DNA from: Erysipelotrichaceae bacterium MTC7
GTDB taxonomy: Bacteria > Bacillota_I > Bacilli_A > Erysipelotrichales > Erysipelotrichaceae
Direction: 5' to 3'
NCBI GenBank assembly: GCA_001695645.1
Contig: LVZN01000012.1
Location: forward strand, 195,922 to 227,921
Length of the DNA stretch: 32,000 bases
In this document: piece after piece, positions 1,628-32,000 of the stretch
How the letters are laid out: the number at the start of each line of letters is the position of its first letter
How positions within the stretch are numbered: position 1 is the first letter of the stretch
Notes under the pieces: model-generated
Seen by the model: the letters and a program-made list of their open reading frames with translations, nothing else
Database searches by the model: none
Told to the model about the DNA's origin: nothing
Program-made: the position numbers and the translations under genes

Positions 1628-2014
1628 AAGTAAGTTTTGTAAGGCTGGTAAATCTTGTTCTGGACTTTCTTTAAATTCAATGACAACATCATCCGTTGCA
1701 TGATAGCGGGGAATGATATGTACATGGAAATGAAATACGCTTTGTCCAGCAACTTCGTTCACATTGCTTAGAATGTTTAAACCAGTACAATCCAGTTTAT
1801 TCATGTAACTCTTTGCAAGATCTTGTGCCACTACCATTACTTTTTGCATCGTTTCTGTATCTACATCAACGAAGTTTTCATAATGTTTTTTTGGAATGAC
1901 AAGCGTATGTCCTTTGGTTACTTGAGATATATCAAGGAAAGCTAGGACATCTTGATCTTCATACACTTTGTACGAGGGGATTTCACCATCGATAATCTTA
2001 CAGAAGATACACAT
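1616..2014 (-). CDS. HIT-family (histidine triad) nucleotide hydrolase
   Basis: Histidine-triad motif HFHVHIIP plus the N-terminal CIFCKII zinc-ribbon-like motif; 132 aa. Confidence 0.9.
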   Translation of the reverse strand: MCIFCKIIDGEIPSYKVYEDQDVLAFLDISQVTKGHTLVIPKKHYENFVDVDTETMQKVMVVAQDLAKSYMNKLDCTGLNILSNVNEVAGQSVFHFHVHIIPRYHATDDVVIEFKESPEQDLPALQNLLKKD

Positions 2015-2016
2015 AA

Positions 2017-2916: not shown

Positions 2917-2931
2917 TGTTGTATCCTCCTA

Positions 2932-3948
2932 TTATTCTTTCTCTTCTTCAACGCCCATGTATGTAAGCAGTTGCGATTTTAAATCTTTGTCATTAATTTT
3001 AACTCCAAGTTTTTCTGCTTTTTGCCAAACGACTTGTTTACGTAAGTTTGGGTTCGCTTCTTGAACTGCAGTGACAACTGCATCAGCGTAATCTTTTAAC
3101 ATTTTTTCTTTACTTGTTGTATCAATTTTAATTTTGTGGAATCCGTGTTCTGTACGAACCCATCCAGAAACTTCACCATCTTTAAGTTTCCATGCAGCAT
3201 CCTTAAACTCAGTAACTAGGGAACTGTCCTTCGTTTGGATACCTAGGCTACCATTTTTAGCAGCACTTGTTGTATCTTCAGAATATTCTTTTGCAACTTT
3301 TCCAAACGATTCATCTTTTAACAAGCTATCGATTTTATCCATTTTTGCTTGTTGTTCAGCAGTAACTTCTGCATCCTTTTCAACTGATACTAGGATATGA
3401 CTGATCACGCGTGGTGATTTGTCTTCATAGATTTTGTCGAAAAGCTCTGGATTTTTATTGATGTAATCACTCATCATTTTTGTTGCTTTTTCAATGTCTA
3501 AGAAGTATTCTTCAAAGTCATCCACACCAGAATAACCAAGCTTTTGAAGTTCTGTATCCATGTAGCTTTCGTAATTCTTTCCTTGTGATGATTTAAAGCT
3601 TGCTTCAGCAGCTTCAAAGTTTGTTTCTGCTGTTTCTTTCATTTTGTCTGTTGCCTTTACACTTTGACTAACAACTTCACGTTCTAACATTGAATAAGCA
3701 AGAATGACACCACTTGGTGTTTCACTGTCGCTTCCTGTTAATTCAAATAATTCTTTATAATATTTGTCTGCAGTGTAATTTTTATCGGCTAAAGAGAAAA
3801 TCACATCCTTACCATCAACACTTTTTGCTCCGATGGTATCTTTGTTTGTATCCCAAGCAAAATAGATCGCAAAAGCGACTAAAATGGTTCCCACTAGAAT
3901 AACAAACCAGAATTTTTTAAGGATATCCTTGATTGTTTCAATATTCAT
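2932..3948 (-). CDS. prsA: Membrane-anchored PrsA-like peptidyl-prolyl isomerase (parvulin domain)
   Basis: N-terminal TM helix (FWFVILVGTILVAFAIYFAW). Parvulin-type segment SHILV...AKEYSEDTTSAAKNGSLG...GFHKIKI. Start moved to the ATG at 3948, which has a GGAGG RBS (reverse complement of 3953-3957); the listed ORF start at 3981 lacks one. Confidence 0.75.
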   Translation of the reverse strand: MNIETIKDILKKFWFVILVGTILVAFAIYFAWDTNKDTIGAKSVDGKDVIFSLADKNYTADKYYKELFELTGSDSETPSGVILAYSMLEREVVSQSVKATDKMKETAETNFEAAEASFKSSQGKNYESYMDTELQKLGYSGVDDFEEYFLDIEKATKMMSDYINKNPELFDKIYEDKSPRVISHILVSVEKDAEVTAEQQAKMDKIDSLLKDESFGKVAKEYSEDTTSAAKNGSLGIQTKDSSLVTEFKDAAWKLKDGEVSGWVRTEHGFHKIKIDTTSKEKMLKDYADAVVTAVQEANPNLRKQVVWQKAEKLGVKINDKDLKSQLLTYMGVEEEKE

Positions 3949-4085
3949 AATGCCTCCTACTATGTTTTTGCATTTTTGCATATGCTAGTATATTATAAAG
4001 GAAACACTTACATAATTCTAGTGTTTACCGTAAAAGTTCACGAGAACTTCAATAAAAAAATTTTCGCAAAGTTAAGTCATCTTCA

Positions 4086-4114
4086 TTGATTAAACGGCAC
4101 TTTGTGAGTACAAT
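4086..4114 (+). promoter_or_regulatory. Candidate sigma-A promoter of the suf operon
   Basis: TTGATT (4086-4091), 17-nt spacer, TACAAT (4109-4114), about 25 nt upstream of the sufC ATG. Confidence 0.45.
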
Positions 4115-4139
4115 AATAGGAATGAGAGGTAGATAACAT

Positions 4140-4943
4140 ATGGCAAAGCTTATTATTAAAGATTTACATGTTGGAATAAATGAAAAAGAAATTTTAAAGG
4201 GAGTAAACTTAGAAGTTGATTCTCACGAAATACATGCAATCATGGGACCAAACGGGCAAGGGAAGAGTACACTCTTGTCAGCGATTATGGGAGACCCTAA
4301 ATTTACGATCACCAAAGGAAGTATTTCTTTTGATGGAAAAGATGTCTTAGCGATGAGCGTAGACGAAAGAAGTCGTATGGGTATTTTCTTAGGAATGCAA
4401 TACCCTGCAGAAATTCCGGGAGTAAACAACTCGGATTTTATGCGTGCTGCAATGAATGCACGTTTAGAAAAACCAATCTCGTTATTTAAATTCATTAAGG
4501 AAATGGAAGGGGCAATTGAAGACCTTGGTTTATCAAGTGAAATGGCTCACCGTAACTTAAACGAAGGATTCTCTGGTGGAGAAAAGAAACGTAACGAAAT
4601 TGTACAAATGAAATTGTTGAAACCAAATTTAGCAATGTTGGATGAAATTGACTCTGGATTGGATGTTGATGCTTTGCAAATTGTTGCCAATGCAGTGTAT
4701 GACTTATTTAACTCACAAGAGTTATCATTATTAATTGTCTCACACTACGAACGTTTCTTAGACTTGATCAAGCCAACACACGTTCATGTATTGCTTGATG
4801 GTAAAATCCAAGAGACTGGTGGATATGAACTCATTAAGAAAATTGATAGTGAAGGATACGACTGGGTATACGATAAATACGGTGTTGAAAAACCTGCAAT
4901 TCAAACGCGTATGTCACTAGATGCTTGTGGAGCGAAAAAGTAA
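4140..4943 (+). CDS. sufC: Fe-S cluster assembly ATPase SufC
   Basis: Walker A GPNGQGKST, ABC signature FSGGEKKR and Walker B LAMLDEIDSGLD. First gene of the sufCDSUB order. Confidence 0.95.
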   Translation: MAKLIIKDLHVGINEKEILKGVNLEVDSHEIHAIMGPNGQGKSTLLSAIMGDPKFTITKGSISFDGKDVLAMSVDERSRMGIFLGMQYPAEIPGVNNSDFMRAAMNARLEKPISLFKFIKEMEGAIEDLGLSSEMAHRNLNEGFSGGEKKRNEIVQMKLLKPNLAMLDEIDSGLDVDALQIVANAVYDLFNSQELSLLIVSHYERFLDLIKPTHVHVLLDGKIQETGGYELIKKIDSEGYDWVYDKYGVEKPAIQTRMSLDACGAKK

Positions 4944-5737
4944 TGGAACAACTCGTAGGGAATACCAATCTTACGCTGGTTGATTCACAAGTAGAAATAT
5001 ATGAACTTCATGATACGCAGGAATTAAACATTACAACAACGGAACAAACAAAAAGCGAGTTAGTGATTCGACTTGTGGAAAACACAAATGTGAACTGTAG
5101 GATTGCTTTGGCACCATACAGTGAATTACACATCCTTTTTGATAATGAAACAAAACAAGCAAATATAAATGTTGTTGCTGATGTAAAACGTGGAGCAAGT
5201 ATTCGTCTTGGTATGTATGAACTGAGTGAAAGTACGGTCAAAGAACAAGTGCTTGTGAATTTGCTTGACCAAGAAGCCAAGGCAAAAGTTATTTCAACAA
5301 GTATTTCTAGTACAAGCAAAGACTTTGATATTGAATGTATACATCATGCACCAAACACGAGTTCTGATATGAATAACTTTGAAATTTCAGATGCAGGGGC
5401 AAACTATACATTACGTGCTTGTGGAACGATAAAAAAAGGTGCTGTTGGTAGTAAATCGCACCAAATGAGTCGTATTCTAACAACTAGTGAAAATCAAATC
5501 AGTAAGGCAACACCAGTCTTGTTGATTGATGAAAATGATGTAATGGCAAGCCATGCCAACTCGATGGGGAAAATGGACGACCAACACCTTTACTATTTAA
5601 CAAGTCGAGGAATGGATGAAAAACAAGCAAAAGAATTATTAACACTATCTTACTTGTTACCAATCAGTGAAGTGTTTGATAACGAAGATATTCGCAGTGA
5701 CTATATCAATAAAGTGCGTAGTCGCGTAGGTTTATAA
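4943..5737 (+). CDS. sufD: Fe-S cluster assembly protein SufD (short form, 264 aa)
   Basis: Positioned between sufC and sufS. The C-terminal SufB/D-type region (ASHANSMGKMDDQHLYYLTSRGMDEKQAKELL) parallels the SufB C-terminus in this window. The ATG overlaps the sufC stop (TAATG). Confidence 0.8.
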   Translation: MEQLVGNTNLTLVDSQVEIYELHDTQELNITTTEQTKSELVIRLVENTNVNCRIALAPYSELHILFDNETKQANINVVADVKRGASIRLGMYELSESTVKEQVLVNLLDQEAKAKVISTSISSTSKDFDIECIHHAPNTSSDMNNFEISDAGANYTLRACGTIKKGAVGSKSHQMSRILTTSENQISKATPVLLIDENDVMASHANSMGKMDDQHLYYLTSRGMDEKQAKELLTLSYLLPISEVFDNEDIRSDYINKVRSRVGL

Positions 5738-5739
5738 AC

Positions 5740-6972
5740 ATGGATGTACAAAAAATAAGAGAAGACTTTCCAATGTTGAAAGTAAAAAGTAAAAAAGGTC
5801 ATGACTTGATTTACTTTGACAATGCGGCAACCGCATTTAAACCTTATAGTGTAATTGATGCAGTAACTTCATATTACACAAAGTATTCAGTGAATGCCCA
5901 CCGTGGTGACTATGAACTCGGATTTACCGTGGATACGCTTTATGAAGAAGCACGTGAACGCGTGGCAAAATTTATAAATTGTGAGAAAAAAGAAGTTGTT
6001 TTCACAACCGGAGCTAGTTTTGGCTTAAACCAAGTAGCATATGGATATGCGGGTCATATTTTGCAACCTGGAGATGTTATTTTAACTGATGAAGCTGAAC
6101 ATGCATCTAACTATTTGCCATGGATGAACATCGCAGAACAAAAACAAGCGAAGCTTGAATTTATTCCACTTGATGAACATGGGATGATTACACCTGAAAA
6201 AGTAAGAGAGATGATGTCTGACAAAGTAAAAATTGTGGCGATTGCACATGTCACAAACGTACTTGGTGCAGAAATTGATATAAAAGAAATTACACGTATT
6301 GTTCATGAATATGGTGCAATCATTGTGGTTGATGGTGCGCAAAGTGCACCACATATGAAAGTGGACATGCAAGATCTTGATTGTGATTTCTTTGCTTTTA
6401 GTGGACACAAACTATGTGGACCAACTGGAATTGGCGTACTTTATGGTAAATACGAATTGCTGGAAGTTATGGAACCACTTTTACTTGGTGGTGGAAGTAA
6501 TGCCCGTTACGATATGTGTGGAAACATCTTAATGAAAAACCCACCATACAAATTTGAACCAGGAACTCCACCAATTGAAGCAACGTTAGGTATGAAAGCA
6601 GCCATTGATTATATTGATAACTTGGGAATGGAAAACATTCACAAGTATGAACATGAATTACGTGATTATATGCTTAAAAAAATGCAAAGTGAACTTGATA
6701 ATGTTGAAATCTACAATGCAAATGTGGAAAGTAGTATCATTACGTTCAATGTAAAAGATGTCTTTAGTCAAGATGCAGCAACGTATTTCTCAGACCAAGG
6801 AATTAGTTTACGTAGTGGACAACACTGTGCCAAACTGTTAATGGATGTATTAAAAACACCGAGTACATTGCGTGCAAGTCTATACTTCTACAACACCAAA
6901 GAAGAAGTTGATCACTTTATTGAAGTATGTAAGAGCATAAGTAAAGAATCCATGTTGGATGTATTCTTTTAG
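5740..6972 (+). CDS. sufS: Cysteine desulfurase SufS (class V aminotransferase, group II)
   Basis: PLP-lysine context FFAFSGHKLCGPTGIGVLYG and catalytic-cysteine context LRSGQHCA; 410 aa. Confidence 0.95.
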   Translation: MDVQKIREDFPMLKVKSKKGHDLIYFDNAATAFKPYSVIDAVTSYYTKYSVNAHRGDYELGFTVDTLYEEARERVAKFINCEKKEVVFTTGASFGLNQVAYGYAGHILQPGDVILTDEAEHASNYLPWMNIAEQKQAKLEFIPLDEHGMITPEKVREMMSDKVKIVAIAHVTNVLGAEIDIKEITRIVHEYGAIIVVDGAQSAPHMKVDMQDLDCDFFAFSGHKLCGPTGIGVLYGKYELLEVMEPLLLGGGSNARYDMCGNILMKNPPYKFEPGTPPIEATLGMKAAIDYIDNLGMENIHKYEHELRDYMLKKMQSELDNVEIYNANVESSIITFNVKDVFSQDAATYFSDQGISLRSGQHCAKLLMDVLKTPSTLRASLYFYNTKEEVDHFIEVCKSISKESMLDVFF

Positions 6973-6984
6973 GAGGAAATGTTT

Positions 6985-7434
6985 ATGAGTAGTATGATGA
7001 ACGACCCGATGATTTTACGACAAATTATTATGGATCATGGAGAGCATCCAAGAAATCATGAATTGTCGCAAGATCCTACATATAAAGAAAAACACATGGC
7101 CAGCGATTCTTGTATCGATGATATCCATGTGCAAGCAAAAATTGAAGATGGAAAGATCGATGATGTACGTTTTGATGGGGTAGCATGTACCATCTCTACT
7201 TCATCAACCTCAATCATGAGTGAACTTCTCATTGGTAAAACCATCGAAGAAGCACGTGAAATTATTAAAAACTATCGTGCGATGATTGATGAAAAACCAT
7301 ACGATGAAGATTTACTTGAAGAAGCGGTTGCATTTAAAAACGTTGGAAAACAAGCCAACCGTATTCACTGTGCCACAATTGGCTGGGATGGTATGGAAGC
7401 TTTAATTAATGAAAGCGAGGAACACCATGACTGA
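6985..7434 (+). CDS. sufU: Zinc-dependent sulfur transferase SufU (IscU/NifU-like)
   Basis: Conserved Cys contexts (NDSCID-like [27 protein letters not shown]). AGGAGG at 6971-6976 favours the ATG at 6985 over 6979. Confidence 0.9.
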
Positions 7435-8833
7435 TAAAGAAAAAGAACTGGGACTAAGTGAAGACTATGAATATGGTTTTCATGATGAAGATACCAGTGT
7501 GTATAAAACAAAAAAAGGGTTATCAAAAGCGATCGTTGAAGAAATTTCAACAATAAAAGGTGAACCTGAATGGATGAAAGAATATCGTCTTAAAGCACTT
7601 GAATACTTTCAAAAGTCACCGATGCAAACATGGGGACCAGATTTAAGTGAAATCGATTTTGATGACTTTACATATTACATCAAACCAAGTGATCGTACAG
7701 AGACATCTTGGGATGATGTTCCAGATACGATTAAGGAAACTTTTGATCGTTTAGGAATTCCAGAGGCAGAAAAAGACTTCTTAGCTGGAGTTACAACACA
7801 GTACGATAGTGAAGCTGTGTATCACAACATGCTACAAGAAGTACAAGATAAAGGGGTCATCTTCCTTGATACAGACACGGCATTAAAAGAACATGAAGAT
7901 TTATTTAAGAAGTTCTTTGGGAAATTAATTCCTTACACGGATAACAAATTTGCAGCGTTAAACAGTGCTGTATGGAGTGGTGGTAGTTTTATTTACGTAC
8001 CAAAAGGTGTGAAGTTAGATAAACCATTACAATCGTATTTCCGTATTAACACAGAACAAGGTGGTCAGTTTGAACGTACATTAATCATTGTCGATGAAGG
8101 TGCGGACATCCATTATGTTGAAGGTTGTACAGCTCCTGTGTATTCTAAAGATAGTTTGCATGCTGCAGTTGTTGAAATCTTTGTGCATAAAGATGCTAAA
8201 TGTCGCTATTCAACAGTGCAAAACTGGAGTAGTAACATTATCAACCTTGTTACCAAACGTGCAAAAGTACTTTACAATGGAAGCATGGAGTGGATTGATG
8301 GAAATATCGGTTCAGGGATTAATATGAAATATCCTGCTTGCGTTCTAGCGGAAGAATATGCGAAAGGAACCACCGTTTCGATTGCCGTTGCAAGTAAAGG
8401 ACAAGTCCAAGATGCAGGTGCCAAGATGATTCATTTAGCACCAAATACATCAAGCACGATAATTTCTAAATCAATCTCAAAAAAAGGTGGAGAAGTCAAT
8501 TACCGTGGTATTGTTCGTCATGGAAAACATGCGAAATATGCCAAAAGTAAAATTGAATGTGATACACTTATATTAGACAAATTAAGTCGATCAGATACAA
8601 TCCCAACAAATATCGTGGAAAACAATCACTCAACGATTGAACACGAGGCAACAGTATCAAAGATTTCTGAAGAACAATTATACTATCTAATGAGTCGTGG
8701 GTTAACCAAAGAAGCTGCAGAAGAAATGATTGTAATGGGATTTTTAGAACCATTTACAAAAGAGTTACCAATGGAATATGCAGTTGAACTTAACCAACTA
8801 TTAAAAATGGATATGGAAGGGTCAATAGGGTAA
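7427..8833 (+). CDS. sufB: Fe-S cluster assembly scaffold SufB
   Basis: Typical SufB sequence ([17 protein letters not shown]..., [43 protein letters not shown]). The ATG at 7427 follows GAGGA and overlaps the sufU stop. Confidence 0.95.
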
Positions 8834-13693: not shown

Positions 13694-15197
<1,504 letters not shown>

Positions 15198-15292: not shown

Positions 15293-18101
<2,809 letters not shown>

Positions 18102-22252: not shown

Positions 22253-22300
22253 GCTTCTTATCTTAACACAGAACCACTTTTGTGTTAATCTTTATAGGAA

Positions 22301-22999
22301 ATGATTGAAACAAAACAGATTGTAATTGATGGGTATAAGATTACGTATCAATTGGAAAAAAAGAAAATGAAAAATATGGTAATGCGCATCCAAGAAGATG
22401 GTTCTTTAAAAGTTAGTGCCAACCCGTATATTCCGCAACATAAAATTGATTCTTTCTTGCAAGAACGGCTTTCTTGGATTTTAGCTAAACAAGAAAAACA
22501 GCATGCAATTTTTGATCGCATCTTTACGACTATCGAAAAGAACCGTGATTTATATCTTTTTGATGAAGCGTATACAATCATTTGCGTGCAATCCAATAAA
22601 AAAGGGATTCAATTCTTAGACAAGAATGTATATGTGTATTATGTTAATGATAAAGCAGAATGTGATACACAACTTCATAAGTGGATTCGTCAAGAATGTG
22701 AAAAGCGTTTTACATCAGTAATTCATGAATTTGATCACATGCTCCAAGATTATCGAATTTCATTTCCAACACTAAAAGTACGTAAAATGAAATCGCGGTG
22801 GGGAAGTTGTGCAACAAGAAGCAATCTAATTACTTTAAATACAAACTTGCTTCATTTACCAAAGTCGTTTTGTGAGTATGTGGTGTTACACGAACTTGCG
22901 CACTTTGTACAACCAAACCATAGTAAGCACTTTTATCAAATCATTGAAAATTATATGCCAGATTATAAAGTGCGTACCAAACTGATTAATCAATTATAG
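22301..22999 (+). CDS. YgjP-like DUF45 zinc metallopeptidase/hydrolase (M48 superfamily)
   Basis: SRWGSC motif and HELAHFVQPNHSKHFY (HExxH plus downstream His); 232 aa. Confidence 0.8.
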   Translation: MIETKQIVIDGYKITYQLEKKKMKNMVMRIQEDGSLKVSANPYIPQHKIDSFLQERLSWILAKQEKQHAIFDRIFTTIEKNRDLYLFDEAYTIICVQSNKKGIQFLDKNVYVYYVNDKAECDTQLHKWIRQECEKRFTSVIHEFDHMLQDYRISFPTLKVRKMKSRWGSCATRSNLITLNTNLLHLPKSFCEYVVLHELAHFVQPNHSKHFYQIIENYMPDYKVRTKLINQL

Positions 23000-23007
23000 G
23001 AGGTCTC

Positions 23008-23565
23008 ATGACAAAACATGTAAATTGGGTCTTGTTTCGTTCATTTGTCATAGCTGGAACATTCACCTTTGCAGGAGGGTTGGCAATGTTGCCGCTTTTA
23101 CAAAAGGAAATTGTCGATAAGCATAAACTTATGAACAAAGACGAGTTTTTAGAAGATGCGATTATGGCACAAACCTTACCAGGAATCATAGCATTGAATA
23201 GTGCTTGTTTCGTTGGTAAGAAAAGTAATGGAATATCAGGAATGATTGCTGCTGCCTTAGGAAGTATTTTACCTGCGTTTGTCTTTATGTTGCTTGCCAC
23301 GATACTATATGCATATATTCCACAAGAAGGACCACTACAAACGGCGTTTGTGGGTATACGTGCTTCCGCTGTGGCCTTTATATTTGCTGCTGCAATTTCT
23401 ATTGGTCAACACGCTTTGAACCACAAAGTTAACTGGTTAATTATGATATTAAGTTTTCTAGTGATTGTCGTGTTTAATTTCCAAGCACCTTATGTAATTT
23501 TATTTGCTGGTATCTTTGGAATTATCTACTATAGTTATATAAAAAAAGAAGGAGGTAAGGTGTAA
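23008..23565 (+). CDS. chrA: Chromate transporter family protein (half-size, first of pair)
   Basis: Polytopic 185 aa with AGTFTFAGGLAMLPLLQKE (CHR-family GGxxA motif). Start/stop coupled to the next half-size paralog. Confidence 0.8.
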   Translation: MTKHVNWVLFRSFVIAGTFTFAGGLAMLPLLQKEIVDKHKLMNKDEFLEDAIMAQTLPGIIALNSACFVGKKSNGISGMIAAALGSILPAFVFMLLATILYAYIPQEGPLQTAFVGIRASAVAFIFAAAISIGQHALNHKVNWLIMILSFLVIVVFNFQAPYVILFAGIFGIIYYSYIKKEGGKV

Positions 23566-24128
23566 TGCTAATCCAAATTCTTCTTGCGTTTCTAAAGGTC
23601 GGTTTCCTTGGTTTTGGTGGTGGATATGCCATGTTATCGATGGTGCTTGATGAATCGCTGAAACTAGGACTTACGGTTCACCAATTTGCAGACTTGAATG
23701 CACTAGATATGTTGATACCAGGTCCCATTGCCATCAATGCGGCAACGTATGTGGGATATCTAGCAGATGGTTTTGCTGGTGCAACTGTTGCAACTGCAGC
23801 TGTTTGTGTGCCATCGTTTGTCTTGGTACCGCTATTCATCAAATTCAAACGGACCTTTGCCAATAACCCTAAGGTGAACCAATTTCTTGATATGGTCAAG
23901 CCTGCAGCCGTTGGACTGGTAGCTAGTGCAGGCTTTACGTTGTTTTTGGGGGTTGTCTTCGGGGTGGATACATTTCAAGATTTACTTGCTAAGGTACATC
24001 CACCTGATGTATTTGCATTGGTTGTAGTGATTGTTTGTAGTTATTTACACATCAAAAAAAATGTCAATCCAATCTTGTTGACGGTAGTCTCAGGTATCAT
24101 CGGTTTTGGCCTATATTATATAATGTAA
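23565..24128 (+). CDS. chrA: Chromate transporter family protein (half-size, second of pair)
   Basis: LKVGFLGFGGGYAMLSM motif; 187 aa, polytopic. The ATG overlaps the upstream stop (TAATG). Confidence 0.8.
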   Translation: MLIQILLAFLKVGFLGFGGGYAMLSMVLDESLKLGLTVHQFADLNALDMLIPGPIAINAATYVGYLADGFAGATVATAAVCVPSFVLVPLFIKFKRTFANNPKVNQFLDMVKPAAVGLVASAGFTLFLGVVFGVDTFQDLLAKVHPPDVFALVVVIVCSYLHIKKNVNPILLTVVSGIIGFGLYYIM

Positions 24129-24142
24129 AACGATGGCGTTAG
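24115..24142. repeat. Left copy of a perfect 28-bp direct repeat (ATTATATAATGTAAAACGATGGCGTTAG)
   Basis: Identical to 27360-27387; the flanking bases differ on both sides. It contains the last codons and stop of chrA plus the left arm and loop of the ancestral terminator. Confidence 0.95.
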
Positions 24143-24213
24143 ACTTGGGCATTTTTTGGTGGAGCGCATCATAATAATATAAAATTAAGTGAAAGTCATT
24201 ATATCTACCTAAC

Positions 24214-24250
24214 AGGATCAACTTATGTGTTGATCCTTTAGCTTTTTATG
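24214..24250 (+). terminator. Intrinsic terminator just inside the left edge of the cassette
   Basis: AGGATCAAC (24214-24222), 6-nt loop, GTTGATCCT (24229-24237), then TTAGCTTTTTA. Confidence 0.65.
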
Positions 24251-24377
24251 AAACATTTTCACATATGTTATGACAAAAAATAAAACACAATGTTGAAAGC
24301 ACAATGTTCATTGATTTTTAGTTAAAATAATCTACGTAGGAACCAGTTGTGTGTACATTTTGTAGCAAACGATCGTG

Positions 24378-24386
24378 TGCTATAAT
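24378..24386 (+). promoter_or_regulatory. Extended -10 promoter for the 140-aa ORF
   Basis: TGcTATAAT (24378-24386). GGAGG RBS at 24405-24409, 7 nt before the ATG at 24417. Confidence 0.5.
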
Positions 24387-24416
24387 TAAAACGTTAAAGT
24401 ATTTGGAGGTCATAGT

Positions 24417-24839
24417 ATGGTAGAAACATACAAGAAATTAACTAAGTACATTCCACTTGTTGAAGTTGAAGAATTCGGAGAGTGGATAGTTGATAATGTG
24501 AATGATGGTTCAAAAGAACATCCAATCCAGTTTCCTTTTGTGAATTATTCAATAATAATTAGAGAACTACAACAAGATATCTATTTGTTTAATGATGAAC
24601 ACCCTGAGTATGGTTTGAACAATTATTATGAAATTTTGGAACAAAGTCATATAAGCTGGGATTCAGAATCAATGCTTGATGCTAATATAGACGAGCTAGA
24701 AGGTACAACAATTATGGCTTTACTGATAGCAGCAGTAAGATCGGAACGTTTTTGTGACGGAGCTTTTCTTAATTTCCTTGAAAAGGGAGCTGTCTATAAG
24801 TGGCTTAAGAGACTGAAAGAAATTGATCAAAACTGTTAA
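24417..24839 (+). CDS. Hypothetical acidic 140-aa cytoplasmic protein (family not recognised)
   Basis: Strong RBS and promoter. No TM or signal sequence and no catalytic motif recognised. The C-terminal segment is ALLIAAVRSERFCDGAFLNFLEKGAVYKWLKRLKEI. Confidence 0.7.
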   Translation: MVETYKKLTKYIPLVEVEEFGEWIVDNVNDGSKEHPIQFPFVNYSIIIRELQQDIYLFNDEHPEYGLNNYYEILEQSHISWDSESMLDANIDELEGTTIMALLIAAVRSERFCDGAFLNFLEKGAVYKWLKRLKEIDQNC

Positions 24840-25235
24840 TGGTATTATTCGTAAATTAAGATAAGTTAGTTAGATTCATAATAATCGATTCTATTGATAT
24901 TATTTGGATATAATAGTTTTTGACTGATTTAGATATTATCATTTGCGCGACATGTGAACATGAAATCAAATTAAAACATGTTTAAGAAGACAGTTTCAGT
25001 TTGATCAGATAAGGGAAGGTGATGATTACTATCATCGGCAATACGCTTTCTTGAAAAAAATTTATACTACCGTACGAAGATTTCAAAGAAGGGTATTAAT
25101 TTGGTAAAGTTTTTCACGATAAATGATGTTCTTGAACATAAATGTCAAAAAAACTGTAAAGTTGACATGTCTCATAGAGAAAATCGTGTAGAATTGACCT
25201 ATGTGAAAAGTGAAATAAACTTGGAGGGAAACAAA

Positions 25236-27314
25236 ATGTCTAATGAATTACAAAATTTATCATTATTATTCCAAAACAGATTATTTAGAATACCTGATTA
25301 TCAACGTGGATATGCCTGGCAACAGACGCAGTTAGCGGATTTTTGGGATGATTTAATTAATTTACAAAAAGGTAAGTATCACTACACTGGACTTCTTTCA
25401 TTAAAAGTACTTAACAGTGCTGAAACTATGAACTGGGACAGTGATTTGTGGATGAGAGACAAAGGTTTTAAACTATGTCATATTATTGATGGACAACAAA
25501 GATTAACTACATTTATTATTCTACTGAACGAAATTGTTGAATTTGAACGTTTACTTGACTGCAACTCTGGCAAAACTGATGATGAAATAGTGCTTGGGTA
25601 CGATACATTAAAAGATGTAGTTGCAAAGTATATTTGTCAGCATAGACCGCCGAATAATTTGATTACTACATATCTTTTTGGCTATGAAGTTGATAACCCA
25701 AGTTCTGATTATCTTAGATTTCAAGTTTTTAATGAGACATTCTCTGGGACTATAAATGAAACATATTATACAAAGAATTTAAAGTTCGCTAAATCCTTTT
25801 TTCATGAAAATATAACGGCATTATATAATACTGAGGGAATAGATGGTTTAAGCAATTTATATTTGAAATTAACGCAACAACTAATGTTTAATATACATGA
25901 AATAGCTGATGATTATGATGTATTTATAGCATTTGAAACAATGAATAATCGTGGGAAAAAACTTACAAATTTGGAACTGCTCAAAAATAGGTTGATTTAT
26001 CTTACAACACTATATTCCAATAATAAATTTGATGAATTGGATAAAAACAATCTTAGAGGAAAAGTAAATGATGCGTGGAAGGAAGTATATTATCAACTTG
26101 GGAGAAATGAAAAAACATCATTGTCAGATGATGAATTTTTAAGAGCTCATTGGATTACTTATTTTGCTTTTTCTCGTACAAAAGGTGATGATTACATTCA
26201 TTTCTTGCTAAATAAGTTCTCTGCAAAAAAAATATATGAAAAGAAAACGATTATAATAGCTGATGCACCAATAGATGTAGAGAATGTAGATTATGATGCA
26301 GAAGAAGCAATTGATGAACTAACTGAACAGGAAATTCTTGAAGTATCAAAACTTGAACCTGCAGAGATATCTACGTATGTCAGCAGCCTGAAAAATGCAG
26401 CAAAATACTGGTATGACTCGTTTTTTCCAATGCAAAGTGAAAACTTGTCAAAAGAGGAAAAGTTGTGGGTAGACAGATTAAATCGTGTCGGTATTGGTTA
26501 CTTCAGACCGTTAGTTATGGTGCTTATAAGTCGCAGAGATTTTACAGCAGAACAACGAATTATCGCATTTTCGGCAATAGAAAGATTTATCTTTATTTGT
26601 TTTAGATTCGGATATTTCAATTCAACGTATGGAAGTAGTAAATATTATCGCGTTGCTAGAAGTATCAATTTAAAACAGATGGAAATAAGTGATTTGGTTA
26701 ACGATTTGGCTAAAACCATTGATGACAATATTGATTATATTATCCCAAGTTTTGTAACAAAAATTGAAAACTTTTTTGCCAGTAAAGATGGTTATTATTC
26801 TTGGAACTCCATAAAGTATTTTTTGTACGAGTACGAGCTCTTTCTTGCAAAGAAAAACAATCTTGATAAGGTAAGTTGGGAGATGTTCACAAAAACAGAA
26901 AAGGATAAAATATCTATTGAACATATACTTCCACAGACTCCATCAAAGCATTACTGGAGGAAACAGTTTAGGCAATTTGATAATGAAGAAATACGACTCC
27001 TTTCGTGTGCTTTAGGAAATCTACTACCTCTGTCACAAAGTATTAACTCTTCCTTGCAAAATGATAGTTTTGATGATAAAAAGACATCTAAATCTTCTGG
27101 AAGAAGAGGATATCAAAATGGCTCGCATTCAGAAATTGAGGTTTCAAAAGAAGCAGATTGGTCTGCTGATAGAATCTATCAACGAAGCAAATCATTATTA
27201 AAGTTCATGGAAACTCGTTGGCAATTCAACTTTACCAATGAGCAAATTGATAGATTGATTTATGTAACATTTGCCATTGATGATAGAGCGATTCCTGATG
27301 AAGTTGTTGAATAA
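25236..27314 (+). CDS. DUF262 + DUF1524 two-domain nuclease (GmrSD / BrxU / SspE-like type IV restriction architecture)
   Basis: N-terminal FRIPDYQRGYAW and IIDGQQRLTTF (DUF262 motifs). C-terminal SIEHILPQTP...LGNLLPLSQSINSSLQNDSF (DUF1524 His-Me finger pattern). Start placed at the ATG at 25236, after GGAGGG at 25223-25228, rather than the listed TTG at 25101. Confidence 0.85.
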   Translation: MSNELQNLSLLFQNRLFRIPDYQRGYAWQQTQLADFWDDLINLQKGKYHYTGLLSLKVLNSAETMNWDSDLWMRDKGFKLCHIIDGQQRLTTFIILLNEIVEFERLLDCNSGKTDDEIVLGYDTLKDVVAKYICQHRPPNNLITTYLFGYEVDNPSSDYLRFQVFNETFSGTINETYYTKNLKFAKSFFHENITALYNTEGIDGLSNLYLKLTQQLMFNIHEIADDYDVFIAFETMNNRGKKLTNLELLKNRLIYLTTLYSNNKFDELDKNNLRGKVNDAWKEVYYQLGRNEKTSLSDDEFLRAHWITYFAFSRTKGDDYIHFLLNKFSAKKIYEKKTIIIADAPIDVENVDYDAEEAIDELTEQEILEVSKLEPAEISTYVSSLKNAAKYWYDSFFPMQSENLSKEEKLWVDRLNRVGIGYFRPLVMVLISRRDFTAEQRIIAFSAIERFIFICFRFGYFNSTYGSSKYYRVARSINLKQMEISDLVNDLAKTIDDNIDYIIPSFVTKIENFFASKDGYYSWNSIKYFLYEYELFLAKKNNLDKVSWEMFTKTEKDKISIEHILPQTPSKHYWRKQFRQFDNEEIRLLSCALGNLLPLSQSINSSLQNDSFDDKKTSKSSGRRGYQNGSHSEIEVSKEADWSADRIYQRSKSLLKFMETRWQFNFTNEQIDRLIYVTFAIDDRAIPDEVVE

Positions 27315-27359
27315 AAAATCTATTTTATATTCTAACTAAACCTTAATATGTTGAAAATG

Positions 27360-27387
27360 ATTATATAATGTAAAACGATGGCGTTAG
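27360..27387. repeat. Right copy of the 28-bp direct repeat
   Basis: Identical to 24115-24142. Here it is continuous with the right arm of the terminator. Confidence 0.95.
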
Positions 27388-27402
27388 GCCATCGTTTCTT
27401 TT
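27373..27402. terminator. Bidirectional terminator (ancestrally shared by chrA and the PHP gene)
   Basis: AAACGATGGC (27373-27382), loop GTTAG, GCCATCGTTT (27388-27397), then CTTTTT. The PHP gene stop codon lies in the loop and its last codons lie in the right arm. Confidence 0.8.
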
Positions 27403-28169
27403 TCGATTTTATCTATGTCCGTTCCAACGTGACTTGGTTGATGTGCATCACTTGCAGTGATCATAGAAACTCCATACGTTTTGAATGTTTGTAACAACTG
27501 TTTGTTATCGCCAATATCTTCATGATGATAACGATAATGAATACCGGTATTGTTTTCGGCTTTCACATGATGCTCAACTAACGCTTTAGCCAGTTCATTA
27601 TAGGTTTCTTGTAAGTCATAGGTTGGATAATAATTAAATAGTTTTAATTGATCTGGGTGGGCAAGTTGCGTGAACAAAGCACTACGTACAAGTTGCATGA
27701 CAAGCTCATAATAACGTTGATAGATACTGTTCACATCTTGTACATTCCATAAAAGCTCTTTGGAAAAGTTCATATCATAAAGAATTCCATCGATGGAGTG
27801 AATAGCACCAACGACAAAATCAAGTTCTAATGGAGCAAGTGTCTTGCGTAAGAACGTCTCATACTCTGGTGCATAACATACTTCCAAACCATAGAGAACT
27901 TCAATACCGTGATCTTCTCGTTGAATGTCTTTCATTAAATCGATAAATTCATGTACGCTATTACAAAACTTTGTTTTTCCTTGTAGCCAGAGATCTTGTA
28001 CTTCATAAGTGCGTAAGTTTTCATATATTGGTTTAAATTCTACAAAGCGATGTGTGTGGTCCAAAATTTGAATGGTTGTTAATCCTTTTTTCTTAGCTTC
28101 ATTAATAAATTCATAGACATACTCTTTTGTGAGTGGTCCGTTTTCTAAATGCATGTGTCCATCAATCAT
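27384..28169 (-). CDS. PHP-domain metal-dependent phosphoesterase (HisJ-type histidinol-phosphatase family)
   Basis: N-terminal MIDGHMHLE, plus internal DHTH, GAIHS and C-terminal ASDAH metal-ligand contexts; 261 aa. Confidence 0.75.
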   Translation of the reverse strand: MIDGHMHLENGPLTKEYVYEFINEAKKKGLTTIQILDHTHRFVEFKPIYENLRTYEVQDLWLQGKTKFCNSVHEFIDLMKDIQREDHGIEVLYGLEVCYAPEYETFLRKTLAPLELDFVVGAIHSIDGILYDMNFSKELLWNVQDVNSIYQRYYELVMQLVRSALFTQLAHPDQLKLFNYYPTYDLQETYNELAKALVEHHVKAENNTGIHYRYHHEDIGDNKQLLQTFKTYGVSMITASDAHQPSHVGTDIDKIEKETMA

Positions 28170-28193
28170 ATGTATCCCTCATTTCTTTTGGAT

Positions 28194-28202
28194 ATTATAG
28201 CA
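28194..28202 (-). promoter_or_regulatory. Extended -10 promoter of the PHP gene
   Basis: The minus strand reads TGcTATAAT, about 25 nt upstream of the GAGGGA RBS and the ATG at 28169. Confidence 0.45.
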
Positions 28203-28249
28203 TATCCTAACATTTGGAAAAAACGGTTTTATTTCTGGTAGGAATGACA

Positions 28250-28458
28250 TTGTCGAATATGCCATTCTAATTTATAATACAAGTACAAGGTAGAGATACC
28301 TAGAAAGATGTCTCCCGAGGAGTGAGGGTGACAAAAATCCCAAATATCGCTCATTAAAGAACTATCCTGAAAGAGAGTTGAACAGGATACAAAAAATGAA
28401 AGGCAACTCATGATAAAAGGATTCTCTGACAATAGAAAAAGAGAATCCTTTTTATTTG
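28250..28458 (+). ncRNA. Orphan promoter-to-terminator unit (about 170-nt candidate sRNA, class unknown)
   Basis: TTGTCG (28250-28255), 17-nt spacer, TATAAT (28273-28278). Internal hairpins: GGTA-GAGA-TACC at 28289-28300 and TATCCTG...CAGGATA at 28363-28389. A 12-bp terminator stem, AAAAGGATTCTC / GAGAATCCTTTT (28415-28452). A separate serC promoter follows. Confidence 0.3.
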
Positions 28459-28534
28459 TTTATAATTCGTAATGTAACAAAATGTAATAGAATATTTGAT
28501 ATATTTACATTTCTTTCAAAAAAATTACATTTAT

Positions 28535-28564
28535 TTCAAAAATCTGTCATTTTTATGTTACAAT
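28535..28564 (+). promoter_or_regulatory. serC-serA promoter (extended -10)
   Basis: TTCAAA (28535-28540), 18-nt spacer, TGtTACAAT (28556-28564). A second TACAAT lies at 28569-28574. AAGGAG RBS before the ATG at 28596. Confidence 0.5.
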
Positions 28565-28595
28565 AGGGTACAATATTATAAAGGAGATTGAAATT

Positions 28596-29675
28596 ATGAA
28601 CAGAGTGATTAACTTTAGTGCAGGACCATCACAGATGAGTGAAAAGGTTCTTAAAAAAGCGAGTGAGCAGTTGTTAAACTACAACCAGACAGGACAATCG
28701 ATTATGGAGATGTCCCATCGTTCGGCAGAATTTTTAGAGGTTTTCAACTCCTGTAAGTCCAAGTTAATTCAACTCATGAATATACCGGAAAACTACGAGG
28801 TATTATTCTTACAAGGGGGAGCAAGTACACAATTCACAATGGTGCCTTTAAACATCTTAGGGGAACATAAAAAAGCAGCTTTCATTAATACTGGAGCTTG
28901 GTCAAAAAAAGCAATTGGTGAAATGAAAAAACTAGGAGAAGCAGTCGTTGTAGCTAGTAGTGAAGATGATACATTCTCATACATCCCTAAAGAGTATGAA
29001 GTACCAAGTGATGTAGACTATTTCTATATTTGTGAAAACAACACAATCTATGGAACAAAATACAAAGAATTACCTGATACAAAAGGTTTACCATTGGTTG
29101 CCGATTTATCTAGTTGCATCCTTTCGGAAGCAATTGATGTTAGTAAATATGGAATCATCTTTGCAGGTGCACAAAAAAACATGGGAATGGCTGGATTGAC
29201 AGTTGTTATCGTCCGCAAAGACTTAATTAAAGAAGATAAGAGTCTTCCATCAATGTTGTCATATAAAGTACAAGCCGATAACGATTCTATGTTTAATACA
29301 CCACCAACGTATGCAATTTACATTCTTGGTTTGGTACTTGAATGGATTGAAGAAGAATTTGGAAGTCTTGAGAACTTAGGAACTTACAATCGTGAAAAAG
29401 CAGAAATTTTGTACGATTATTTAGATCAATCAAAACTGTTTAAAGGAACTGTCGCAAAAGAAGACCGTTCTTTAATGAACGTACCATTTGTTACTGGTGA
29501 TGAAACTCTAGATGCTACTTTTGTAAAAGAAGCAAAGGCAAGAGGTATGGTGAATTTAAAAGGACACCGTAGTGTTGGGGGAATGCGTGCCAGCATTTAC
29601 AATGCGATGTCAAAAGAAGGTGTAGAAACACTTGTTGCGTTTATGAAGGAATTTGAAGAGGAACATACAAAATGA
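28596..29675 (+). CDS. serC: Phosphoserine aminotransferase
   Basis: N-terminal INFSAGPSQMSEKVL, PLP-lysine context GAQKNMG and C-terminal HRSVGGMRASIYNA; 359 aa. Confidence 0.93.
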   Translation: MNRVINFSAGPSQMSEKVLKKASEQLLNYNQTGQSIMEMSHRSAEFLEVFNSCKSKLIQLMNIPENYEVLFLQGGASTQFTMVPLNILGEHKKAAFINTGAWSKKAIGEMKKLGEAVVVASSEDDTFSYIPKEYEVPSDVDYFYICENNTIYGTKYKELPDTKGLPLVADLSSCILSEAIDVSKYGIIFAGAQKNMGMAGLTVVIVRKDLIKEDKSLPSMLSYKVQADNDSMFNTPPTYAIYILGLVLEWIEEEFGSLENLGTYNREKAEILYDYLDQSKLFKGTVAKEDRSLMNVPFVTGDETLDATFVKEAKARGMVNLKGHRSVGGMRASIYNAMSKEGVETLVAFMKEFEEEHTK

Positions 29676-30829
29676 ATATAAAACTATACAATAAAATTTC
29701 ACCAAAAGGATTGGCTCTTTTTGATGATGAAAAATACCGTTTTGGTGAAGAAGTAAACAATCCAAATGGTATCTTGGTACGTAGTGCCAAACTAAACGAT
29801 ATGGAATTTAATGATGAGTTACGCGCCATTGTGCGTGCTGGAGCTGGGGTAAACAACTTACCAATCGATCGTTGTAGCGAAGCGGGTATTGTTTGTTTTA
29901 ATACACCTGGAGCCAATGCAAATGCCGTAAAAGAACTTGTTTTTGCAGGAATGTTACTTTCTGCAAGACCGGTTTATAACGCTATGAACTGGGTTGCAAC
30001 GCTAGATGAGACTGCAGAAGTATCTAGTATTGTTGAAAAAGAGAAAAGCAACTTTGTCGGAAATGAACTTCGTGGTAAAAAACTAGGAATCATTGGACTG
30101 GGTGCCATTGGAATCAAAGTGGCAAACTTAGCATTGCACTTTGGAATGGAAGTATATGGATACGACCCATATATTTCAATTGATGCAGCATGGCAGTTGT
30201 CACGTAAAGTGCACTATGCAAAAACCTTAGAAGAATTGTACGAGAAATGTGACTACATTTCGGTTCATGTTCCTTTAAGTGATAAAACAAAAAATATGAT
30301 TAATGGCGATGCAATTGCAAAAATGAAAGATAACGTATGTATCTTAAACTTTGCACGTGGTGGATTGGTTGACGAAACAGCCGTTGTTAAAGCCATTGAA
30401 GCAGGAAAAGTGAAAAACTATGTTACAGATTTCCCAAATGGAGATATTTTACATGTAGATGGTGTTATCTGTATTCCGCACTTAGGAGCTTCAACACCAG
30501 AATCAGAAGAAAACTGTGCCATTATGGCGGTTGACCAAATTCAAGATTTCCTTGAAAATGGAAACATTTTACATTCGGTGAATTTACCGAATGTACATAT
30601 GGATCGTAGTGGAGATGCAAGAATTACGATCTTCCACCGCAATGCACCAAATATGATTGCGCAAATCACACAAACCATTTCAGATAAAGGGATCAACATT
30701 GAAAACTTAATCAACAAAAGTAAAAACGATTATGCGTATACGATTGTCGATGTAAACAGTACCGATGTTGATGCAGTAGTCAAAGAATTAGCCTCAATTG
30801 ATGCAATTTTGAAGGTGGTTGCACTGTAA
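29672..30829 (+). CDS. serA: D-3-phosphoglycerate dehydrogenase (2-hydroxyacid dehydrogenase with C-terminal ACT-like domain)
   Basis: NAD-binding GIIGLGAIG and catalytic region NFARGGLVDE...PHLGAST. Overlaps the serC stop (ATGA). Confidence 0.88.
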   Translation: MNIKLYNKISPKGLALFDDEKYRFGEEVNNPNGILVRSAKLNDMEFNDELRAIVRAGAGVNNLPIDRCSEAGIVCFNTPGANANAVKELVFAGMLLSARPVYNAMNWVATLDETAEVSSIVEKEKSNFVGNELRGKKLGIIGLGAIGIKVANLALHFGMEVYGYDPYISIDAAWQLSRKVHYAKTLEELYEKCDYISVHVPLSDKTKNMINGDAIAKMKDNVCILNFARGGLVDETAVVKAIEAGKVKNYVTDFPNGDILHVDGVICIPHLGASTPESEENCAIMAVDQIQDFLENGNILHSVNLPNVHMDRSGDARITIFHRNAPNMIAQITQTISDKGINIENLINKSKNDYAYTIVDVNSTDVDAVVKELASIDAILKVVAL

Positions 30830-30954
30830 ACAAACGAATTATCAGAATTGTAGGTTCTTTAGTTGAAGAAGATTTTGAAATCCCATATAATATATTTTAG
30901 TATATGACATATTAAGATATAGGAACCGAAGGCGGATCAGACAGGGAGAATTTA

Positions 30955-31881
30955 ATGAATACTACATATTTGAAATACGTAATTGAAATTGAAAAAAGAC
31001 GTTCCATTACGCATGCTGCAGAGAAACTGTACATGGCACAACCAAACCTAAGTAAAGTGATTCGAGAATTTGAAGAAACGCTTGGTTTTACGATTTTTGA
31101 ACGTGGACCAAAGGGTACGGTGCCAACACCAGAAGGCGCACAACTGATTAAATATGCGAAAGAAGTTCTTGCGCAAATCAATAAGATTGAACAAATTAGC
31201 CAAAGTGAGTTTAAAGATGTACAACGTTTCAATGTGACAACGCCAAGAGGTAGTTATATTTCTTATGCTGTTGTTCGTTTGATTGAAGAACTTGATTTGG
31301 ATAAATCCATTCAGGTTAACATTCAAGAAACCAACTCGATGCAGGCGATTTCTAATGTGTCTGATGGTCAGTTTAATTTAGGTGTGATTCGTTACGATAT
31401 GGCGCACGAAAACTACTTTCGTGATTATTTAAAGGATAAGAAGGTTGTATTTGAACCTATTTGGGAATTTAAGCATTTAGTTACACTGGCAAAAGATTCT
31501 CCATTGCATGACAAAGAAATCTTAGAACTTTCTGACTTGGATGATTTTGTTGAAATTTCACACGGAGATAATTTTGTGCCATATCTTAAACAGTTGAACC
31601 AAAATGAAGAAGCTTGTAGTAAACAAATCTTTGTTTATGAAAGACAAACACAATTTGCAATTATGTCTCATGTCCCAAAAACGTATATTTGGGGTTCGGC
31701 AATACCACAAGAGTTGTTGGATTTATACAATCTTGAACAAAAACCTTGTAAAGGTATTCGTAAAAAATATCGTGATGGTTTTATTTATCGAGAAGGTTAC
31801 ACCTTGTCGAATTTAGATCAGCGTTTTATGGTGAAACTTGAAGAAGTAAAAAATGAAGTTTACCAAAACTTAGAAAAATAA
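30955..31881 (+). CDS. LysR-family transcriptional regulator
   Basis: N-terminal wHTH (YLKYVIEIEKRRSITHAAEKLYMAQPNLSKVIREFEETLGFTIFER) plus a substrate-binding-like C-terminal domain; 308 aa. Confidence 0.88.
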   Translation: MNTTYLKYVIEIEKRRSITHAAEKLYMAQPNLSKVIREFEETLGFTIFERGPKGTVPTPEGAQLIKYAKEVLAQINKIEQISQSEFKDVQRFNVTTPRGSYISYAVVRLIEELDLDKSIQVNIQETNSMQAISNVSDGQFNLGVIRYDMAHENYFRDYLKDKKVVFEPIWEFKHLVTLAKDSPLHDKEILELSDLDDFVEISHGDNFVPYLKQLNQNEEACSKQIFVYERQTQFAIMSHVPKTYIWGSAIPQELLDLYNLEQKPCKGIRKKYRDGFIYREGYTLSNLDQRFMVKLEEVKNEVYQNLEK

Positions 31882-31893
31882 TAAGGGGTTAAT

Positions 31894-32000
31894 ATGTATA
31901 AGATTGTTGAAAAAGAAAGATTGAATCCAACAGTTACGAAAATGGTCATTGAAGCACCAGCGATTGCGAAAAAAGCAAAAGCTGGACAATTTGTCATTTT
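31894..32000 (+). CDS. PyrK-like FAD/NAD(P)-binding protein (sulfide/dihydroorotate dehydrogenase-like, ferredoxin-NADP reductase small subunit type), N-terminal 35 codons; runs off the window
   Basis: My own translation from the ATG at 31894 gives MYKIVEKERLNPTVTKMVIEAPAIAKKAKAGQFVI, a typical N-terminus for this family. GGGG RBS-like at 31885-31888. Confidence 0.6.
   Translation, partial: MYKIVEKERLNPTVTKMVIEAPAIAKKAKAGQFVI

Follow-up and report, generated by a model that had tools for sequence, protein, structure and literature searches.

In the 32,000-nucleotide stretch of Erysipelotrichaceae bacterium MTC7 analysed here (contig LVZN01000012.1, positions 195,922 to 227,921; hereafter the window, to which all coordinates refer), a segment of 3217 bp (24143-27359, forward strand) that carries a gene of the GmrSD family is inserted in a terminator hairpin, between the chromate-transporter gene chrA2 and a convergent gene for a PHP-family histidinol-phosphatase, and is flanked by a 28-bp target duplication. 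The segment does not occur in the sister species, and other cargo takes its place in a contig of the same species. The account towards which we lean is that a horizontally acquired defence islet entered this site by an illegitimate event that needed no recombinase and duplicated the target, and that the alleles of the site then spread by recombination in the flanks.

The 28-mer ATTATATAATGTAAAACGATGGCGTTAG is present exactly at 24115-24142 and at 27360-27387 on the forward strand. This pair is the longest perfect direct repeat of the window, in which no further copy was found at up to 3 mismatches, and dinucleotide-preserving shuffles never produced such a match (0/100). The bases adjoining both copies on the outside differ and the boundaries of identity are sharp: reading by hand revealed neither a decayed chrA tail 5' of the right repeat nor a decayed PHP tail 3' of the left one. 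The left copy consists of the last 11 nt of chrA2, its stop codon (TAA, 24126-24128) and, from the ancestral hairpin, the left arm with the loop; it does not form a hairpin upon folding (z 0.29). The right copy extends into GCCATCGTTT and gives a 10-bp stem with a 5-nt loop (GTTAG). This hairpin, the ancestral bidirectional terminator, spans 27373-27397 (-15.6 kcal/mol, z -3.95) and holds the stop codon of the PHP gene inside its loop (TTA on the forward strand, 27384-27386). The insertion point lies where the loop meets the right arm. No difference separates the two copies, even in the halves on which no constraint remains, and this speaks for a true target duplication of fairly recent date. 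Moreover, the 28-mer carries chrA codons that are specific to this species, with about 6 substitutions and a 2-nt indel with respect to the equivalent stretch of Breznakia blatticola, as read from the alignment. Our preferred reading of the repeat is a true duplication of the target. No terminal inverted repeats were found at the insert ends, and a Pfam search of the 26 open reading frames (ORFs) submitted across the window detected no integrase, transposase or recombinase domain.

The nearest species representative is B. blatticola, whose proteins share 94% (SerC and SerA) and 78% (PHP) amino acid (aa) identity with those of the window. In this species and in five metagenome contigs (L001 and L061-L065, respectively) the site is empty: chrA2 and the PHP gene are convergent and separated by an 11-nt gap, and the order is chrA TAA, then AAAAACGATGA-TTTAGT-TCATCGTTTTT, with the PHP stop codon in the loop. 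The hairpin of B. blatticola is homologous to the right-hand hairpin of the window. Since a single homologous hairpin stands at the empty site of the B. blatticola lineage, the ancestral state was one shared terminator, and the window represents an insertion with 28 bp of target on both sides. A locus search based on chrA2 had no match in the metagenome contig collection. The arrangement is different elsewhere. Breznakia sp. PF5-3 (L003) has a spacer of about 100 bp with a different hairpin, B. pachnodae (L002; L069, partial) has an ABC transporter and a 175-aa membrane protein, and in L066-L068 the chrA pair is absent and the PHP gene overlaps a YgjP-like gene.

A second occupied site was found in two contigs (L072 and L073) that belong to the same species as the window, because their flanks are 97.3-98.9% identical to it. 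In these contigs the same hairpin contains a 6.2-kb phosphotransferase system (PTS) operon (in L072, approximately 1844-8018 of the reverse complement), encoding PTS IIB, PTS EIIC, a glycoside hydrolase of family 1 (GH1), an RpiR-like regulator and a second GH1 enzyme, with its own terminators at both ends. This cargo contains no recombinase or mobility genes and no flanking repeat (the best match is 10 bp). The homology of L072 to the window breaks off directly behind the chrA stop and picks up again within the right arm of the hairpin, which means that in L072 the cargo replaced 18 bp of the hairpin. The PHP protein of L072 ends with EKEETETK, as compared to EKETMA in the window.

The comparison between the window and L072 also revealed how such alleles move. 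The density of single-nucleotide polymorphisms (SNPs) was 0.45% at 22286-23183 and 0.59% at 27941-32000, as compared to 4.8% at 23184-24128 (about 0.95 kb to the left of the site) and 4.6% at 27396-27940 (about 0.55 kb to its right). In other words, it rises about 10-fold within 0.5-0.95 kb of the site, and delimits a divergent tract at approximately 23184-27940, with flanks at 4.6-4.8% against about 0.5% outside. This pattern is the footprint of a homologous-recombination tract. We infer that in one of the two strains the allele was imported from a donor diverging by 5-8%, along with flanking DNA (about 0.95 kb on one side and 0.55 kb on the other). Taken together, the sites compared indicate that the terminator has been occupied recurrently, apparently with no recombinase involved, and that its alleles are exchanged by flanking homology.

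An earlier, sequence-only reading of this stretch had anticipated much of this picture. It had reported the exact 28-bp repeat with differing outer bases, which the sequence search recovered, and a 10-bp hairpin around the PHP stop that is completed by the right copy and lost by the left one, which carries the chrA stop; folding gave the same result. Its proposals that chrA and the PHP gene were once convergent neighbours with a shared terminator, and that a segment entered with a 28-bp duplication leaving both genes intact, are borne out by the empty site of B. blatticola and of the five metagenome contigs. It had also advised searching for the empty site and for other cargo at the same position, and both exist (L001 and L061-L065; L072/L073). 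Finally, its suggestion of an exchange at a hotspot mediated by recombination finds direct support in the 6.2-kb cargo of the same species and in the SNP tract.

The guanine-cytosine (GC) content of the insert is 0.310, as compared to 0.356 in the rest of the window. All the 224 segments of the same size taken outside the insert had a GC content of at least 0.331 (standard deviation 0.010), so that the insert lies about 4.5 standard deviations low. GC content at third codon positions (0.24-0.26 for the two insert genes) and codon usage did not separate these genes from those of the host. The insert was therefore expected correctly to be richer in AT than its flanks, and of the two deviations for which a windowed check had been suggested, that in GC content was found and that in codon usage was not. 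The segment possesses its own expression signals, as previously noted. A terminator-like hairpin followed by a T-run (24214-24237, forward strand; -17 kcal/mol, z -4.56) is now located downstream of chrA2. A putative promoter was read from the sequence at 24360-24386 on the same strand (TTGTAG, 15 nt, and the extended -10 element TGcTATAAT at 24378-24386), and GGAGG ribosome-binding sites precede both genes. The Pfam and repeat searches agree with the claim that the segment holds only a GmrSD-like gene and one for a small protein, with no integrase, transposase or inverted repeats. The three proteins encoded in the insert region are identical to OCN05229-OCN05231 of Erysipelotrichaceae bacterium MTC7. 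The left end of the insert had no match in the viral contig collection.

Proteins of the GmrSD family combine a DUF262 NTPase with a DUF1524 His-Me/HNH nuclease and cut modified phage DNA, such as DNA containing glucosylated hydroxymethylcytosine. The gene of the insert (25236-27314, forward strand) encodes a protein of 692 aa, assigned to this family of Type IV restriction endonucleases by Pfam and PADLOC. The most likely start is the ATG at 25236, with GGAGG 8 nt upstream, rather than the TTG at 25101 that was called mechanically. Pfam detected GmrSD_N (PF03235, DUF262) with an E-value of 1.4e-27 at residues 56-298 of the 737-aa ORF, and GmrSD_C (PF07510, DUF1524) with an E-value of 1.3e-18. 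The best PADLOC models were HEC-06 (1.9e-45), Orf5 and SspE-like. In the translation, both the N-terminal DGQQR motif (IIDGQQRLTT) and the nuclease motif SIEHILPQ...GNLLPLSQSINSSLQN (EHILPQ...N...N) are intact. No sequence-level match to any solved structure was obtained for this protein. By its domains the main cargo is a GmrSD-family Type IV restriction enzyme, and it may be expected to restrict DNA.

The closest relatives of this protein share 72-83% aa identity with it. Most of them are fusions of 855-945 aa with DUF4268, and the remaining ones have 706-718 aa, with a separate DUF4268 gene at the 3' side and a 78-aa helix-turn-helix (HTH) gene at the 5' side. These relatives adjoin a 521-aa large serine recombinase (L044) or an insertion sequence (L052), and they are also located near the end of Streptococcus suis prophages, after two recombinases, where they are annotated as "RloF". 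The nucleotide homology to the closest loci (L044-L053), of about 80%, spans only 25189-27298. Just at its beginning, a tblastn search with the HTH protein of L044 identified the last 13 codons of an HTH gene (25188-25226, forward strand; 9/13 identities), and at the other end the window GmrSD is devoid of the last 14 or so codons; it also has no C-terminal linker of the kind present in its closest relatives. No DUF4268 domain or gene was found in the window by tblastn with the DUF4268 protein of L044. The GmrSD gene of the window is accordingly a stripped fragment of an HTH-GmrSD-DUF4268 module, and these homologies indicate that the predicted Type IV restriction cargo derives from modules of mobile elements. 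As for the organisation of the closest relatives (L044, 5863-11570; L070; L071), serine recombinase(s) are followed by HTH, GmrSD, DUF4268 and a 243-aa protein that is conserved but has no Pfam domain. In the S. suis rum-type prophages the module lies directly 3' of two recombinases, and in phi-SsuFJSM5_rum it is upstream of aminoglycoside-resistance genes.

The other gene of the insert (24417-24839, forward strand; ribosome-binding site at 24405-24409) encodes a 140-aa protein of the DUF6508 family (PF20118, E-value 9e-12), whose best non-self homologue shares 64% identity. Its AlphaFold2 model is a confident predicted structure (predicted local distance difference test score 91.7), for which no fold match was found in the PDB; the PDB contained no sequence relative either. 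No match to this protein was found in PADLOC, NCBIfam, phages or plasmids, and no mention of the family was found in the literature. Three other contexts of DUF6508 were examined (L060, 6001-6411; L074, 6001-6411; L054, 5001-5420), and in two of the three the gene is part of a defence or mobile region, close to DUF4268 proteins. In L060, a Type III restriction-modification system is followed by GmrSD, DUF4268 and DUF6508. In L074, bacteriophage exclusion (BREX) BrxL and DUF4268 are followed further on by DUF6508, within an element that has a Tn916-type integrase. The DUF6508 gene of Phascolarctobacterium has housekeeping genes as surroundings. The protein deserves to be flagged, as it has a confident predicted fold, no known structural relative, and a tendency to recur near Type IV restriction, DUF4268 and BREX genes. 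Between the two genes of the insert, a 349-bp spacer (24840-25188) contains no ORF of at least 40 aa and no detected homology, and is likely the junction of two unrelated pieces. From these comparisons, the insert is a patchwork of unrelated pieces and not a conserved two-gene unit.

These observations can be arranged in the following sequence of events. The source would have been the GmrSD fragment of an HTH-GmrSD-DUF4268 module, which is normally located beside serine recombinases on prophages or other mobile elements. This fragment would have been joined to an unrelated DUF6508 gene, and an illegitimate event independent of recombinases would have brought the resulting patchwork into the loop of the bidirectional terminator shared by chrA and PHP. 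The 28-bp duplication may have arisen when the hairpin suffered a staggered break, or prompted a template switch, and fill-in followed; the same process may have led to the small deletion in the L072 allele. Both flanking genes were kept intact, with chrA now reading into the insert's own hairpin and GmrSD into the old terminator. Afterwards, the alternative cargos would act as alleles of the site, passed from strain to strain through homologous recombination in the flanking chrA and PHP genes, so that no recombinase encoded by the element is needed.

Several points weigh against this account. No experiment or second independent case ties the duplication to a particular mechanism. At 28 bp, the duplication is shorter than the published long target duplications and is of a length also found among integrase att cores, and the searches of MTC7 for the 28-mer and for a matching integrase cover the 32-kb window only. 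The true empty site was observed only in another species (78% aa identity in PHP), and the sole comparator of the same species holds other cargo. The two cargos, that is the GmrSD islet and the PTS operon, could have come by unrelated mechanisms. Finally, the restriction activity of the enzyme in the absence of its DUF4268 partner is a prediction.

The strongest alternative, which we regard as possible although rather improbable, is that the 28-bp repeats are the attL and attR cores of an integrative element, either non-autonomous (resembling cis-mobilizable elements, CIMEs, or pseudo-SCC cassettes, where SCC stands for staphylococcal cassette chromosome, and mobilised in trans) or decayed, with its integrase deleted. 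Integrase att sites typically take this form, with perfect direct repeats at the 3' end of a gene and no loss of either gene; 28 bp is the size of an att core, and the target has dyad symmetry, with the crossover point adjoining the spacer. The cargo shows deletion scars (the HTH remnant, the missing DUF4268 and the lack of the last 14 or so GmrSD codons), and its relatives adjoin recombinases. However, no integrase was found in the insert or elsewhere in the window, and no integrase-bearing element that uses this site was seen. Serine recombinases exchange strands at a 2-bp core and do not create identical repeats of 28 bp, and the recombinases beside the GmrSD relatives are of this very type. 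In the same species the other cargo is joined differently to the flanks and lacks a repeat, whereas att elements would be expected to share the same junctions and repeats. Copies of the core of the repeat were absent from the viral contig collection (24-mer) and from the metagenome contig collection (21-mer). Moreover, the repeat matches the chrA codons of the species itself and not a conserved attP-like sequence. For these reasons the proposal of att cores mobilised in trans, put forward in the sequence-only reading, is weakened and does not find support in our data, and site-specific recombination appears less likely than an illegitimate event.

We consider it unlikely that the repeats originated from a Campbell-type single crossover, in which a circle with the 28-bp stretch, excised from the corresponding site of a close relative, was re-integrated by short homology. 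The repeats are in fact identical, their length is near the minimum for RecA-dependent recombination, and the locus does exchange by homologous recombination between strains. Nevertheless, this explanation merely moves the problem, as the first duplication would still need an origin, and a SNP tract on both flanks fits a double crossover on linear DNA better than the integration of a circle.

A bolder version of the illegitimate insertion, which we put forward as doubtful, assigns a mechanistic role to the terminator hairpin: a recombinase-free break or template switch at the extruded palindrome would capture foreign DNA, yielding either a long duplication, as in the window, or a small deletion, as in L072. 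In its most extreme form, GmrSD would promote its own insertion, according to the "selfish restriction gene" life cycle of Kobayashi. Separately, and with the same reserve, DUF6508 could be an accessory component of the DUF4268/Type IV neighbourhood.

A transposon, a Xer-dependent (dif-like) module or an integron cassette is hardly credible. A transposon or insertion sequence was rejected, since there are no terminal inverted repeats and no transposase, and 28 bp is far beyond the usual target-site duplications. With respect to Xer, 28 bp is the length of a dif site, and TAATGTAAAAC resembles the XerD arm (8/11 to what we take to be the dif site of Bacillus subtilis). This candidate was discarded as well, because the putative XerC arms match at 3/11 positions of the dif site so assumed and the identity runs 11 bp past the XerD-like arm; besides, in the part of the window that was profiled (18-32 kb) the cumulative GC skew keeps rising steadily, which indicates that this is not a replication terminus. 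As to integrons, GTTAGGC and GTTAGAC at the two junctions fit the core consensus GTTRRRY, but no attC-like hairpin besides the host terminator, and no IntI or attI, was detected; in addition, the repeat contains chrA coding sequence and thus derives from the target and not from a cassette.

If the illegitimate insertion with target duplication that we favour is right, the locus offers a natural example of a defence gene that enters a chromosome and spreads within a species with no recombinase of its own. Its empty, occupied and alternative-cargo sites are known with base-pair precision. The mechanism of "insertion with long target duplication" could be studied here, and the locus could also be used to test whether the terminators of convergent genes are preferred entry points for accessory DNA in Firmicutes. 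What novelty remains would reside in the hairpin as a mechanistic target and in a role of DUF6508 alongside Type IV restriction, both of which are possibilities.

The genes around the insert include those for SUF, for PTS and glycosidase proteins, serC/serA and others of a housekeeping kind. Two half-size Chromate_transp genes precede the insert on the forward strand, namely chrA1 (23008-23565, 185 aa) and chrA2 (23565-24128, 187 aa), the latter with its stop codon inside the left repeat. The Pfam E-values of the pair are 3e-40 and 3e-37, and aa identity to the B. blatticola proteins is 88-89%. The stop codon of chrA1 and the start codon of chrA2 overlap (ATGA), and the split is present also in B. 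blatticola and B. pachnodae; its conservation makes it look like an ordinary two-gene short-chain CHR pair and not a pseudogene. On the other side, the HisJ-like PHP gene (27384-28169, reverse strand; Pfam PHP, 2e-11) encodes a protein that matches NCBIfam HisJ families under the curated cut-offs. PHP and serC are divergent, and the 426 bp of intergenic DNA that separate them (28170-28595) show zero differences from L072, although the adjoining 3' part of PHP differs by 4.6%; a leader or regulatory RNA for serC/serA could lie there unrecognised. An Rfam scan of 23000-28600 gave STnc230 as the sole match, at 28391-28460, outside the insert and below threshold (27 bits against a gathering score of 50). 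Farther upstream, paralogous GH1 6-phospho-beta-glucosidase genes (13779-15197 and 16665-18101; 73-75% nucleotide identity over several hundred bp) lie on either side of a GH4 gene, downstream of genes for a BglG-type antiterminator and for PTS EIIBCA. The arrangement has the look of an ordinary duplicated cluster for sugar utilisation.

Several systems already described resemble the islet. GmrSD enzymes and their association with DUF4268 and mobile elements are documented (Machnicka et al., 2015; PMC4619093). The protein of the window shares with Eco94GmrSD, BrxU and SspE-like proteins the DUF262 plus DUF1524 architecture and the DGQQR and H-N-N motifs, and members of the family reside on mobile elements and in defence islands and are often transferred horizontally. 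In the lineage to which it belongs DUF4268 is normally fused or adjacent; the copy in the window has none. With respect to the HTH-GmrSD-DUF4268 ("RloF") module of S. suis Javan575, of phi-SsuFJSM5_rum and of L044-L053, identity reaches 70-80% in nucleotides and up to 83% in aa across GmrSD; unlike that module, the segment of the window has no HTH gene (of which 13 codons are left), no DUF4268 and no recombinases, and sits in a chromosomal terminator.

The CIMEs of Streptococcus thermophilus at fda (with repeats of about 27 bp) and the pseudo-SCC cassettes are recombinase-less elements flanked by att sites, which they share with known integrative and conjugative elements or SCC elements that bear an integrase. 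The islet is similar to them in that it has a small cargo, direct repeats of the 15-30 bp class at the 3' end of a gene and no integrase in cis. It differs in that no integrase-bearing partner was found and that the other cargo at the site lacks repeats. It also resembles the hotspots of core genomes that are exchanged by flanking homology, as a single intergenic site between conserved genes has a content that varies among strains and species (GmrSD islet, PTS operon, ABC transporter or nothing) and a recombination tract; unlike the defence hotspots of this kind, only one of the cargos observed in our handful of genomes is related to defence.

The closest parallel comes from restriction(-modification) genes, for which "insertion with long target duplication" has been described (Nobusato et al., 2000; Gene 259:99). 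A systematic survey of this pattern for Types I-IV (Furuta, Abe and Kobayashi, 2010; PMC2853133) includes a lone, shortened mcrA of Type IV; it reports duplications of 45-423 bp and applied in one screen a cut-off of >30 bp, which excludes att cores. The class has been reviewed (PMC2993543). As in this class, the insert is below 20 kb (3217 bp), carries a restriction gene and no mobility gene, and its direct repeats correspond in alignment to one copy where a related genome, in this case that of the sister species, has the empty site. The repeat of 28 bp is below the cut-off of >30 bp, so that membership is by resemblance only. Other differences are the host, a Firmicute of the Erysipelotrichales, the target, which is the loop of a bidirectional terminator hairpin, and the enzyme, of the GmrSD type with no methyltransferase. 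The sequence-only reading had named the islet its best candidate for an undescribed accessory or defence module; the main gene is instead a recognisable GmrSD Type IV enzyme, and the class of insertion is already published (PMC2853133, PMC2993543). The islet is neither a new defence system nor a new class of mobile element, but a clear-cut case of a pattern that earlier work had reported for restriction genes.

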